The translations under genes and the position numbers were made by a program. A stretch of DNA of 64,000 nucleotides, taken from Dictyostelium discoideum. Lineage: Eukaryota. This document shows, one piece after another, positions 49,514 to 55,500 of this stretch. The stretch's first letter is position 1. Every line of letters starts with the position of its first letter. The notes under the pieces are model-generated. The model did no database searches and had not been told where the DNA came from. It was given only the letters and a program-made list of their open reading frames with translations. The stretch lies in assembly GCA_000004695.1 (NCBI GenBank), contig CM000155.2:1408001-1472000 (forward strand), in the 5' to 3' direction.

Positions 49514-52233
49514 ATGATAAAAACAATCTTAATTAAATTAATATTATTAGTGATATTTTGTTATCACTTTTTATTTGCAGAAGGTATTACATTTTATCTT
49601 AAATAAAAAAAAAATTAAAAAAAAAAAAAAAAATAAAAAAAAAAAAAAAAAAAAAAAATAAAAAAAAAATTACTGAAATTTTAATATTTAAATAATCACT
49701 TTTAGAAGATGTAATTAGTACCCCTCCTGGATATTATGATTTAATACGTCACAAAAGGGATCCACCTATTACAGAATATCAATCATCTCAAGATACAGAT
49801 TTATATTACCCTGATGTTTGCAGAAATGCTCTTAGACCTCTTGATTATCCTTGGATTAACGAATTTGCCCCTATTTTTTTTCCAGGCTTCAACATGGGTG
49901 GCTTTAATAGTATATTCATCCCAAAAAGTAATTGTTTTTTATTTTTATATTTATTTTTATTTTTATTTTTATTTTTATAATTATTATTATTATTATTATT
50001 ATTATTATTATTATTATTATTATTATTATTATTATTATTATTATTATTATTATTATTATTATTATTATTATTATTATTATTATTATTATTAATAACTAAC
50101 TATCAATTAATTAATATAGATAGATCAATGATATTCAGGACTCCATTTCAAGATTCATTAGTAACTTTACATGTTGTGTGCATTGAGGGTACCTTTATTG
50201 TTGAAGGGAATAGATTTCTTTTTGCTAATACTATAATTGTTCTTCCTGGTGGAAGATTTGAAAGTACTACAGGAATAGAATTTTATGACGAAAATGATTC
50301 CGGAGTATCATTTTATCCAGATTTACCAAAGGATCCTTCTGGATTCTTTCCAGGTATTCTTGTATTGGGTGGTTCAATTTCAGTAGTTGGGAAAGAACCA
50401 ATAGTATATAGAGCAAGCCGTATTAATGATTCATCGATAGAGATAAGTCCACCAGTTCCAGAGATAATTATTTCACCAAACCCATGGGATAGAGTTTATA
50501 AGTTAGTTAAAATATTTACAGAATTATATCCTCTAGGATTTTATTGTAGATATAATACAGATGAAGTAGGAAAGATTCTTTCATTATCTTCTTATCTTTT
50601 ATACCCTTTCCCACCAGTATCAGAGAATGACAAAATCATCAGAGTATTAGTTGAAACTGATAGACAACAGACTGTGATCCCAACAAATATCTACAAGAGA
50701 GAGTATGCAACCAAAGGTTCAATTTACATAACAGGTGGATCAAATGCATATTTTAAAAATATCTTTTTTAAAAATCTAGGTTTCACCAAAAATGAACCAT
50801 ATAATGATACAAAGTTAATATTCTCTCCAAATGATACCAATGTAGTAACCGATATAATAATGGGAACAAATCAAAAATTCAGAAGTTCGTTGTATATTGA
50901 ATCCTCAAAAAATGTTACAATAGAAGGTTGTGCATTTGTTGAAAACGATCTAACAAGATCACCATTGGTTTTCTTTGATTCGAATGTAAAAATATCAAAC
51001 AGTTTAATTTCAAGTAAATCAGGTTCAAATATAATCGCTCTACATGGTACTGATTCAATTCAATCTTCAAACAATTCTTATTTACTTGAAAAAATCGATT
51101 TGGCTTCATGGGATGTTGAACGAAATAATAATATTGATTGTGGTAATCAAGGTAATGGTATTTTTTCAATTTCTCCAAATATAAACTCAAATGGTGATTA
51201 TTTCTCTGGTCAACAAACTGCATTCAACTATTATTTTATTCCAAACAACTCTGTAAACTCTAACCAAGATAATAGCTCATTAAATTCAAGACCAATTGAA
51301 ATTATTATTAAAGATTCAATGTTCAATCCAACAGCTTCCAATGGTTCTTTAAATAAATATTTTTTAAATATCAATACTGATGGTAATAAAACAATAAGTA
51401 CCTATTTCACAGTTAGGGATTTAAAAACTTCACATGCCATTAACATGAATTTAAACAATAGTGCTATTGCCTTTTACAATTTAAAGGGTGGAGAAGGTTT
51501 TAAAATGGAAGGAAACGTTGAAAGATTGGATATTATTGGTTCAATTATCAATTCAAATGGATCAATTAAAAACATTTCAACATCAACTACAAATATCATT
51601 GATTCTTACATTTACAGTTCATCATCAGATATTCAACCATTCAATAATCAAATCTATGGTTCACTAATTACACCCTATTACTATAGCGATTCAAACACTT
51701 TAGATAAATTTGAAATAAAATCAATACTTCCAAATGCACCCATTCAAATCGTTTCAGGTTCACTTTTTAATGTCAGTGTCCAAATTCAAACTTTATCGTC
51801 ATCAGTTTCAATAGATAATATCTCATGTATTTTTACTTCAAGTGTAATCAATACAACAGTTGTCCAAGTTAATTCTAATTACAGTTGTATTTTACCACTA
51901 AATATTACCAATGAAGAGGGTCCACTCAATCTTAGAGTCACTTTAGTTAATAACACATCACCATCATCAGTATCATCAGACAATTATTTATATATTATCG
52001 ATTTTCCAGAGATTACAGTATTTAATACCTATGAGTTTTATTCAGGATGGTTAATGGATAATTCAAATTCTAGTCAACAAATTTCTTTTGGAGGCAATTC
52101 ATTTAAAAATGGATGTAATAAAGTTGATAGCAATTGTACAATATCACAGAATTCAAAATATTCAACAGTATTTTCCCAACTTTCAATAACTTTACCTTCA
52201 AATTTCAAAACAAAAACTCATTGGATGAAATAA
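49514..52233 (+). CDS. secreted or cell-surface protein with a signal peptide, a beta-helix-like Asn/Ser-rich extracellular region carrying many N-x-S/T sites, and then a PT-repeat stalk (next feature). Proposed exons: 49514..49583, 49706..49927 and 50120..52233.
   Basis: Exon 1 is [23 protein letters not shown], a hydrophobic signal peptide, ending at donor GTATTA. Exon 2 follows acceptor TTTTAG and reads [74 protein letters not shown], ending at donor GTAATT. Intron 2 holds a roughly 120-bp (ATT)n repeat. Exon 3 follows acceptor TATAG (50119) and reads [48 protein letters not shown]... to stop 52233. Domain assignment is tentative: it is G8/PbH1-like. Confidence 0.6.
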
Positions 52234-52508
52234 ATATTGCGTTCACAACAAGAGGCGATATTTATTTAACATCAATGGCAACTTATTCATCCATTGAAGT
52301 TGAACCACCAATTGAAACTCCAACTCTATCACCAACTAAAACTCCAACTGAAACTCCAACACAATCACCAACTGAATCACCAACTCTATCACCTACTGGA
52401 TCACCAACTGAATCACCAACACTATCACCAACTCTATCACCAACCGAAACACCAACTCAAACACCATCTGAAACACCAACTCAAACACCAACTCTATCAC
52501 CAATTTAA
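52131..52508 (+). CDS. PT-repeat (mucin-like, O-glycosylation-type) stalk ORF in the -1 frame relative to the preceding gene. It is probably the C-terminal continuation of that gene.
   Basis: [64 protein letters not shown]. The frame opens only at 52131, right after a TAG, and overlaps the end of ORF 50128..52233. The track's M is a TTG. After the TAA at 52506-52508 the same frame continues TPTETDSTPISFREIKIKNK*. Confidence 0.5.
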
Positions 52509-55500
52509 ACACCAACTGAAACAGATTCAACTCCCATTTCTTTCCGAGAAATTAAAATAAAAAATAAATAAATAAAAAGAACCTTTTTATTCAATACAAG
52601 CATTAATCAATATAATTGTAATTTGAAATATTATTTTATATTAAATTAAATATGAATTTTAATTCAATTGGAGAATCTCTTGAATTAATTGATGTTATTT
52701 TAAAATTCTTTAAAGATTTACTTGTAACTAATTATTGAATTTATCATTTGATTTAATTCTGATTTGATGTTATCTGTATTACCAAAATCTGATTTAATAC
52801 ATTGGAAACTGAAAAATCCCATTCGATAAGTTTGATAATATTTGAAATGAATTAATTGGTATTGTAATTGAATGTAAATTTTCAAATTGATTAACTGTGA
52901 TTAAATGGAGTGGTTCAACGAAACCCTCATCTTCAAGTTCATTTTCTACTTTAATTGATTCAACTTGTTGACCTGAATTATCCGGATCGAATAATGTTGA
53001 ATAATTGAAATGTTTTGAAAATCACAAACAACATCAGACCCATCATAAATTATATTTTTAGTTTTGAATATCTTTAATGATTCTTTATCTTCATCAATAT
53101 GATCATCATCCTCCCCTTTTCTTAATTTTTTTTTTTTTTTATATAATTAAATTAAATATAAATAAATAAAAATTAATAAATAAAAAAAAAAATTATATAA
53201 CACCGCACAAAAAAAAATACATATTAATTTTAGAAAAAAAAAAAAAAAAAATAGGAAAGATTTTTTTCGAATTGTTGTGAATTGTAATGAATTGTAACGA
53301 ATTGAATTGAATTTTGGATGGTAAATCAATGTTGGGGGATATGTTGCGTATTTTTTTATTTTTTTATTTTTTTATTTTTTATATATAAAATTTATTTTGT
53401 GGTTTTCTACTATTTATTTTAAAATTAAAAAAAAAAAAAAAAAAAAAAAATGGTCCATATTTCATCCAAAAAAAGAAAATAATAAAGAGGGCCACAGCCG
53501 ATTAAATTAATTATTTGAAAGTTGCCGTACCGTTATGATTTTTTTTTTTTTTTTTAAAATTTTATTTTTTTTTAAATTTTATTTTTTTTAAATTTAATTT
53601 TTTTTCCTTTTTTTTTTTTTCCTTTTTTTTTTAACTTCCGGAAAAAATTTGCCTTTGCCTTTCAACCCAAAAAAAAAAAAAAAAAAAAAAAAAAATTAAA
53701 GGGTTTTTTTTATAAAGTTATTATAAAATTAAAAATTTTATTTTTTAAAATTTTTTTTAAAAATTTTTATTTAAAAAATTAAAATACTTATTTTTAAACC
53801 AAAAAAAAAAAACTTTTGGAAAAAAAAAAAAAAAAAAAAAAAAAAAAAAACCAAACCAAAAAAAAAAAAAGCAAAAATTGGACACAATCAAAAACTCAAA
53901 AAAAAAAAAAAAGGATGATTAGAAATTGAAAAAACTATATGTCATTGAAAAGAGAAAATAGAATTATAATTAATAACAATAATAAATAATAAATAATAAT
54001 AATAGTAATAATAATAATAATAATAATAATAGCAATAATAAATAATAAATAATAATAAATAATAAGTATGTGATTAGAAAAAAAAAAAAGCCATTGGCCT
54101 TTTATCATTTTTTTTTTTGTATATTTATTTGTTTATTTATAATTTTTTTTTTTTTTTCATTCTTTGTTTTTGTTAAAAATCTCACCACATTGTTACAATA
54201 ATCAACAATTGGATTAATCAATTTTTGATGATAATGGAAAGAATTGGATTTTAATTTTAAATTTACTTTAAAATTATTGAAATATACTCGAAATAACTCA
54301 ATCACTTTACATGGGAAGGATTCTGTGTTGGTTAATTTTTAAAAAAAAGAAAAAAAAAGAAAAGAAAAAAAAAAAGAAAAAAAAAAAAAAAAAAACTGCT
54401 TTGTGGTGGTAGTGGTATCACAACAAAATGATGATCGATGTGTGGTCTTTCATTTGCATTTTTTTTTTTTTTATTCATTTTTTTTTTTTTTATGAAAATT
54501 TAAATGTGCTTCTATTTCAAAATACAAACCCTTTTTTTAGGGTTAGGTTATCATATTAATTTACAATAATAACTCATTTATGGTAAAGCTCATCATTAAT
54601 AAAAATAATAATGATAATAATAATTAATATTAATCGAAACATAGAACAAACCCACACAATTTCACAACACAACAACAAATTAAAAAATTATTAAAAGTAA
54701 ATTAAAATATAAATAAAAAAAATAAAACAAAATAAAAAAAAAATAAAAATAAAAAAACAAAAACAAAAATAATAACAACAACAACAATAACAACACAACA
54801 AACACAAAACTCTTTGATTGTATTTTTTTTTTTTTTTAAATTTTTATTTTTTTAATTTTATTATTTTCCACACCTCTCTTTATTTATACATTTTCAATTA
54901 ACTAAAAGATAAAATAAATTATAATAAAAAAAAGTGAATTTAATTTATTTTTAATTTATTTTTATTTTTTTATTTTTTATTTTTATATACAAAGAACCTT
55001 TAACTAAATAAAGGGTATATTTGCTGTTTTTTTATTTTTATTTTTATTTTTATTTTTATTTTTTTTTTTTTTTTAAACATTTTTTTTTTTTTTTAATTTA
55101 TTTATTGATAATCACTTACTTAAATCAACATAATATTATTTATTTATTTATTTATTTATTATTTATTTATTTATTTATTTATTTATTTATTTATTTATAT
55201 CTATATCTAATTAATGCAATATAATTAATATATTTTTATTAATAATATTTTTTATATTTATTTTGTAAAACAGAACGATTTAATAAAAGATTTAAAAAAA
55301 AAGTAAAAAAACATAAATAACAACAAAATAAAATAAAAAGAAAGCAAAAAAAAAAAAAAAAAAAATTAGTAAAATCAAAAAAGAGATAACAAAAGAAATT
55401 ACAAAATATTAAGTATGTGATTTAAAAAAAAAAAAAAAAAAAAAAAAAAAAAAAAAATTCAATCTCGAGATCATTAAAATTAAAACAGTTGTGGTAGAAG

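Follow-up and report, generated by a model that had tools for sequence, protein, structure and literature searches.

Why does a stretch of DNA that appears to encode a single protein fall into two overlapping reading frames? This question is raised by a locus on contig CM000155.2 of Dictyostelium discoideum (GCA_000004695.1), of which we analyzed positions 1,408,001 to 1,472,000 of the forward strand (64,000 nt, hereafter the window). An open reading frame (ORF) in frame 1, ORF1 (50128-52233), ends with the residues ...THWMK at a TAA (52231-33). It shares 100 nt with ORF2, which opens at TTG 52134 after a TAG (52128-30), runs in the -1 frame for 124 aa through a Pro/Thr (PT) repeat array and stops at TAA 52506-08. 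The array is a 12-nt tandem repeat of 18.6 copies (Tandem Repeats Finder), the TAA lies within its penultimate unit, and beyond this TAA the frame still reads TPTETDSTPISFREIKIKNK before the next stop. An initial annotation of this DNA, whose sequence features were all confirmed on inspection, had assigned both ORFs to one gene and placed a frame break within 52131-52233. Both proposals were borne out, and our analysis makes it very likely that the break is a 244-bp deletion in the last exon of an already annotated gene, gdt7.

ORF1 corresponds to exon 3 alone, and two further exons are located upstream, with GT..AG introns between them. The three-exon splice (Table 1; exon 3 as a whole extends over 50120-52233) yields a product of 801 aa that is an exact match to EAL61281.1/XP_629698.1 (DDB_G0292314, D. 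discoideum AX4), with the UniProt entry Q54DE3, "Growth-differentiation transition protein 7" (gdt7). A literature search found no papers mentioning 'gdt7' or 'DDB_G0292314'. The N-terminus of Gdt7, which derives from exon 1, is hydrophobic and aligns with the N-termini of receptor kinases; in the AlphaFold2 model residues 2-21 form a helix, fitting a predicted signal peptide.

The best homologue, P0001 (959 aa), is encoded at a 23-kb locus (L001), and because this locus is collinear with the window over its 23 kb at ~93% identity, P0001 is the gdt7 orthologue. Two other loci, L005 and L009, have the same flanking genes (RING-WD and myoM) as gdt7 in the window. In tblastn searches, P0001 residues 100-781 aligned to 50125-52167 in frame 1 and residues 863-958 to 52167-52490 in frame 3, whereas residues 782-862 had no counterpart in the window. 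ORF2 is far beyond chance, since its translation matches the C-termini of the orthologous proteins (tblastn E = 5e-39). DNA alignment placed the break at 52166-52168, where 244 consecutive nucleotides are absent from the window. As 244 = 3x81+1, the loss amounts to 81 codons plus one base, which accounts for the apparent -1 shift. The junction shows a 2-nt microhomology, AG, within an imperfect direct repeat, TCAACAG/TCAAAAG, a pattern typical of deletions by slippage or microhomology. The missing segment (28-32% GC) is translated in P0001, in P0127 (the protein of L009) and in the L005 orthologue, and every gdt family member compared shows strong conservation of it, even receptor kinases with an overall identity of 38%. 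The segment is thus ancestral coding sequence that was lost here. An insertion in the relatives was considered and rejected, as distant paralogues conserve the segment too. A short intron joining the two frames was likewise rejected: two independent annotations end the coding sequence at THWMK and 52131-52233 is colinear with the orthologue coding sequence, although no explicit GT...AG scan was made.

To describe what was lost, we used an AlphaFold2 model of P0001 (built with a 21-sequence alignment), which predicted an all-beta ectodomain at moderate confidence (pLDDT 68). In a separate model, residues 775-910 formed an eight-strand beta-sandwich (pLDDT 74). The deletion corresponds to strands 1-5 of this module (P0001 782-862), and strands 6-8 are the out-of-frame relic at 52167-52304. 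With strands 1-5 deleted and strands 6-8 frameshifted, none of the module is left in the AX4 product, whose last 21 residues are unrelated. In the comparison of all 19 family members, the deleted module showed the highest conservation within the ectodomain, and in the receptor-kinase forms of gdt proteins it adjoins the membrane. Foldseek searches with the module gave weak matches (E ~1e-3, TM score 0.45-0.54, 10-15% identity), consistently to jelly rolls of the malectin-like or carbohydrate-binding type: the BcsB CBD, CBM35, CBM27, Cry toxin domain III, ANX1 and FER; the full-length model matched CBMs, ANX2 and phage tailspike beta-helices (locally, and with a low TM score for the tailspikes). 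The region described as beta-helix-like had no Pfam hit in either the window protein or P0001. The paralogue P0005 had a sub-threshold Beta_helix match (E = 0.0048, 17 bits versus a cutoff of 25.9), and residues 298-420 were modeled as runs of short, regularly spaced strands.

These data suggest the following sequence of events. In the lineage leading to the laboratory strains, a 244-bp deletion within the last exon removed 81 codons and one base, most likely by replication slippage or microhomology-mediated end joining between TCAACAG and TCAAAAG. It excised five of the eight strands of the conserved membrane-proximal module and put the other three, together with the Pro/Thr linker, out of frame. 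Translation would now pass through 21 junk codons to the stop at 52231-33, and the old C-terminus would persist as an untranslated, overlapping ORF with its original TAA retained. The shortened gdt7 is thus most likely a young pseudogene or a null-to-hypomorphic allele, which the annotation, by closing the ORF early, shows as an ordinary gene; that the gene may be decaying had been suspected in the initial annotation, and we agree. The features of the locus are listed in Table 1. The microsatellite in intron 2 extends over 49978-50092 (~38 units) and is uninterrupted.

Table 1. Features of the gdt7 locus, in window coordinates.
Feature	Position	Strand	Description
gdt7 exon 1	49514..49583	+	start codon, signal-peptide-like N-terminus; part of the exactly matching spliced product
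gdt7 intron 1	49584..49705	+	GT..AG, rich in poly-A; splice model confirmed by the exact protein match
gdt7 exon 2	49706..49927	+	contains ...DLYYPDVC..., an N-terminal motif conserved in the gdt ectodomain
gdt7 intron 2	49928..50119	+	includes a long (ATT)n microsatellite
gdt7 exon 3, part in the ancestral frame	50120..52166	+	gdt extracellular domain; ~93% identity to P0001 residues 100-781
Deletion junction	52167..52168	+	only 'AG' between exact anchors; 246 nt in L001, L009 and L005
Frameshifted novel tail and TAA of the annotated product	52168..52233	+	21 codons, unrelated residues
Out-of-frame relic	52167..52304	+	old frame is the -1 frame of the window; last three strands of the predicted C-terminal beta-sandwich module
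PT-repeat array	52301..52523	+	homologous to the Pro/Thr linker that precedes the TM helix in gdt receptor kinases; untranslated now
Ancestral gdt7 stop TAA, old frame	52506..52508	+	common to the orthologue in L005
Old 3' untranslated region, reading TPTETDSTPISFREIKIKNK and a stop	52509..52571	+	DNA conserved in L001 and L005

The TAA within the PT array had been interpreted as a possible second lesion, or a recent truncation. When five 3' ends were aligned, this TAA was also found in the more distant orthologue L005, with identical DNA behind it (ACA CCA ACT GAA ACA GAT TCA ACT CCC ATT TCT TT...); L005 carries an extra TGA two codons upstream of the shared stop. Because it is common to L005, the TAA at 52506-08 is the ancestral gdt7 stop and not a second lesion, and the codons after it are old 3' untranslated region. 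L001 and L009 have lost 11-12 nt including the TAA. Multi-unit indels are expected in a 12-nt tandem repeat, and the PT array indeed differs by such indels between orthologues. The C-terminal end of gdt7 was different in every genome examined. In L009 (~6150-6250, the 3' end of the P0127 gene), 12 nt with the ancestral TAA are gone and the protein runs into the tail ...SPIPLSEPTIDKLFKYNPLHFLLPSSI; the DNA 3' of the array in this locus is unlike that of the window, L001 and L005. In L001 (~13165-13181), an 11-nt loss in the last PT units gives TCACCCAACTGA, and P0001 ends in ...TQSPN at a TGA.

A profile search retrieved 21 family proteins (E from 0 to 1e-133). Most are receptor kinases, 1350-1620 aa long, whose alignments cover 91-94% of P0001; P0138 (AX4 DDB_G0270550) aligned over 92%. 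In the alignment, the receptor forms consist of the ectodomain, a Pro/Thr-rich linker, a transmembrane (TM) helix, LKIALPICLSLALLIGIIIMICIF, and a kinase domain. Previous work defined the GDT family as receptor kinases with a common, highly conserved extracellular domain (PMC1420674). The gdt7 orthologues of the D. discoideum complex (P0001, P0127 and the L005 gene) terminate within the PT linker or shortly behind it and have neither a TM helix nor a kinase domain. Beyond the PT array, none of the frames of the window, L001 and L005 encodes a hydrophobic segment. Pfam searches with both window ORFs and the orthologues gave no kinase match and nothing above threshold, the only signal being a sub-threshold PT repeat. 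Full-length receptor kinases detected no kinase or TM relic between gdt7 and myoM (tblastn). The initial annotation was correct in that no TM or glycosylphosphatidylinositol (GPI) signal is reached. However, this is not an effect of the lesion, because the absence is native to the D. discoideum-complex orthologues. Its description of a cell-surface glycoprotein with a mucin-like stalk was in turn too generic, as the gene is gdt7, whose PT array is homologous to the linker next to the membrane in the receptor kinases.

With respect to its origin, gdt7 is absent from the syntenic interval between the RING-WD gene and myoM in D. citrinum and D. firmibasis; window 48048-53360 corresponds to ~480 bp in L006 (7362-7844), and the counterpart in L007 is at 7503-8986. 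Either the gene was gained specifically in the D. discoideum complex, or the other lineages lost it. A mobile element flanking gdt7 was not found, the repeat and tRNA scan having yielded only low-complexity sequence and one tRNA-Gln 4 kb upstream. Orthologues without a TM helix and kinase, together with the absence from D. citrinum and D. firmibasis, point to gdt7 as a young, lineage-restricted and already shortened duplicate of a receptor kinase, in which the PT 'stalk' is the old juxtamembrane linker. Judged from the sequence, Gdt7 is a predicted secreted, kinase-less and TM-less duplicate of the ectodomain of Dictyostelium gdt receptor kinases. Two further proteins, P0004 (D. dimigraforme) and P0003, were considered as syntenic orthologues and rejected, since P0004 is encoded at a different locus and P0003 at a contig end.

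We then asked how old the deletion may be, using L005 as the outgroup and 761 aligned codons. The window branch had 17 synonymous and 25 non-synonymous changes, with a ratio of non-synonymous to synonymous rates (dN/dS) of 0.42, and the branch of the intact L001 gene had 26 and 30, respectively (dN/dS 0.33). The two branches did not differ (Fisher p = 0.68), and the window branch was below neutrality (binomial p = 0.006). Relaxed constraint, that is, dN/dS near 1, was not found on the window branch, a result that fits a very recent lesion. No new stop has arisen in the relic ORF, and its only two window-specific changes outside the repeat are synonymous in the old frame. As purifying selection acted on gdt7 during most of the period after the split, the deletion is recent.

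Several other explanations of the frame break were considered. The genome is AT-rich and rich in homopolymers, and assemblies do differ at poly-A/T tracts elsewhere, so that a homopolymer miscount, as suggested in the initial annotation, or a collapsed region could create such a break. However, the difference is 244 nt of complex coding sequence and no homopolymer count. In addition, a separate assembly, L008 (GCA_054883475.1), is 99.5% identical to window 46511-55239, with zero differences over 49635-53573 and every difference in intergenic or intronic low-complexity tracts, and its annotation contains the same 801-aa product. The assemblies of Holland et al. 2025 were made de novo from Nanopore plus Illumina reads (PMC12745789), and we infer that L008 is laboratory strain AX2-214, the sole near-AX4-identical genome in that study. 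Since this independent assembly is identical across gdt7, sequencing error is excluded, and an artefact of any kind is scarcely credible. A different possibility is that the 244 nt were removed as a cryptic intron, from a mis-spliced mRNA that was reverse-transcribed and recombined into the gene. One of the three deletion phasings, ...ACAG/GTTTAC...CAAAAG/TATT, does have GT...AG termini. However, GTTTAC fits the Dictyostelium splice donor consensus, GTAAGT, poorly, and because the AG is the microhomology itself, only the GT is needed, for which we estimate a chance of ~1 in 16. Furthermore, with 28-32% GC the segment is richer than Dictyostelium introns, whose GC content stays under 15% (PMC1420674), and both genuine gdt7 introns were kept. 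We regard this route as improbable.

Alternatively, the frame break might be bypassed during expression, by -1 ribosomal frameshifting or transcriptional slippage within the 100-nt overlap, which would re-join the ORFs and express the PT stalk. The overlap contains one canonical in-phase heptamer, A_AAT_TTC (52200-52206), and a stable hairpin lies downstream of it at 52218-52297 (minimum free energy -22.6 kcal/mol, z = -4.7). However, with nine in-phase heptamers in ORF1, 0.44 are expected in the overlap by chance. Intact orthologues, for which no frameshift is required, share the hairpin (z -3.6 to -5.2); it is hence older than the deletion and no evidence of programmed frameshifting. The spacer in programmed -1 frameshifting is usually 5-9 nt, whereas here it is 11-15 nt. 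Moreover, a shifted product would still be without at least five of the eight module strands and without an anchor, and homology switches frame at 52166-52168, where there is no slippery site. The runs for which a -1 slip had originally been proposed, TTTTCCC and AAAACAAAAAC, are unchanged in the intact orthologues, the cause being the 244-nt deletion. Rescue of the old frame is therefore very improbable. The remaining possibility, rather unlikely but considerably less so than the others, is that truncated Gdt7 (801 aa) is a functional or neo-functional secreted fragment, made up of the beta-helix-like region and the sandwiches upstream, which would still bind the ligand of the family, for example as a decoy for Gdt receptor kinases, and that the deletion was neutral or even selected. 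Its 780-codon ORF is unbroken with the signal peptide and introns intact, relaxation is not detectable at a window-branch dN/dS of 0.42, and intact gdt7 orthologues are already without TM helix and kinase, so that the normal product would be a soluble ectodomain. Against this, no other part of the ectodomain is as conserved across the 19 family members as the lost module, and a low dN/dS is equally expected if the deletion is very young. The hairpin (inner stem AAUAAAUAUUGC/GCGAUAUUUAUU), which is located within conserved coding sequence, is present in L001, L009 and L005 and is not found in a D. dimigraforme paralogue.

A young truncating deletion with loss of gdt7 function is therefore the reading that we prefer, but it should be noted that several points weigh against it. 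Loss of function is derived here from the sequence. The first ~780 residues are an intact ORF with a signal peptide, so that a truncated protein could still be secreted, fold and function. The dN/dS values lump the time before and after the deletion. The mechanism proposed for the deletion, slippage or end joining, is backed by only 2 nt of exact microhomology. Finally, AX2 and AX4 share the NC4 ancestor, and the allele may be private to one natural isolate or to laboratory stocks.

With respect to the assemblies themselves, the window and L008 differ by a 10-nt poly-A indel in intron 1 (49625-49634). Downstream of the gene, at 53574-53856, there are ~25 mismatches between the two, mostly to T, clustered in a poly-T/poly-A low-complexity stretch; these probably stem from noise in the assembly or polishing of one genome or the other. 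Two assemblies labelled 'Dictyostelium discoideum', GCA_054859355.1 and GCA_054859385.1, contain DNA ~93% identical to the AX4-type window, coding sequence included (compared as the whole loci L001 and L009 against the window, and as window 2887-7991 against L003/L004). This value fits the diverged tropical isolates CR116C and OT3A (PMC12745789).

The neighbors of gdt7 are a RING+WD40 gene on the minus strand (46104-47853) and a gene with myosin-head, RhoGEF and PH domains (myoM-like, ~55.6-61.4 kb). The tRNA-Gln(TTG) gene is located at 45608-45680 (+), between an upstream gene for a 1685-aa protein and the RING-WD gene. Two kinase genes elsewhere in the window, 25748-28474 (-) and 12386-13093 (+), gave weak tblastn matches to the kinase domains of gdt receptor kinases and are unrelated to gdt7; for the former, no exactly matching protein record was found.

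What do these findings mean for users of the gene? As gdt7 has already been annotated, what is new is the exact 244-bp lesion, its polarity, its recency and its presence in AX4 and, by inference, in AX2. Q54DE3/DDB_G0292314 is shown as a normal 801-aa protein, yet its last 21 residues are frameshift junk and, compared with wild relatives, it misses ~125 conserved ectodomain residues and the linker. The Gdt family regulates the growth-differentiation transition and the polyphosphate response (PMC8262924), and for Gdt studies in AX2 or AX4 it matters that gdt7 is probably a null or hypomorphic allele in these strains. The gene also offers a clean and datable case of step-wise decay of a receptor-kinase duplicate, in which the kinase and TM helix were lost first and an ectodomain module next. 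The main value is for annotation and for strain users; no new biological question is opened, and the lesion, a young truncating deletion of an ordinary kind in a duplicate that looks dispensable, is unsurprising. There is only a slim chance that the deletion both has a phenotype and occurs nowhere but in the laboratory lineage derived from NC4 (AX2, AX3, AX4). If this were true, loss of the module would alter growth-to-differentiation sensing, through a decoy or through loss of a natural antagonist, or else a small fraction with the PT-linked tail might be restored via the A_AAT_TTC heptamer and the downstream hairpin. Standard laboratory strains would then differ from wild D. discoideum in a routinely studied signalling component.

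The closest known system is that of the GDT receptor kinases themselves (Gdt1, Gdt2, Gdt4 and others of the TKL group; PMC1420674), which share with gdt7 the signal peptide and the large gdt domain and align with intact P0001 including the deleted module and the Pro/Thr linker. In contrast to these, gdt7 has no TM helix and no kinase domain, and the AX4/AX2 allele is also without the last ectodomain module, retaining ~780 of ~905 ectodomain residues. The kinase-less paralogues P0002 (D. cf. discoideum) and P0004 (D. dimigraforme) have, like gdt7, a full gdt ectodomain and a short linker. Unlike gdt7, however, they retain LKIALPICLSLALLF, the hydrophobic segment that is the TM helix in the receptors, and end right after it. 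Both are encoded at loci other than that of gdt7, P0004 beside a gene for a peptidase M1 and P0002 amid a cluster of gdt kinases. On the D. dimigraforme locus (L010), P0004 is encoded ~3 kb upstream of a second gdt-like gene (1464 aa, 16067-21491, with 19301-19394 inside it), which is presumably a receptor kinase; this arrangement suggests that kinase-less copies arose by tandem duplication.

At the level of the lost module, the predicted jelly-roll-like sandwich of eight strands resembles malectin-like and CBM-type modules, such as those of the plant CrRLK1L proteins ANX1, ANX2 and FER, CBM35 and BcsB. However, the matches of the gdt7 module to these are weak and come with no Pfam sequence-family hit, and carbohydrate binding is only a putative function. 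As for the lesion, Goldberg et al. 2006 (PMC1420674) report that Dictyostelium pseudogenes, Gdt3_ps among them, often pass for genes in the annotation, 'by truncating the ORF'. The kinase pseudogenes of this type share with gdt7 a frameshift in a conserved region, conservation onward in another frame and a lesion masked by annotation. They were recognized by their kinase domain, and gdt7, which has none, falls outside that screen. It also differs from them in the nature of its lesion, which is a defined 244-bp deletion, free of additional decay and datable against sister genomes.

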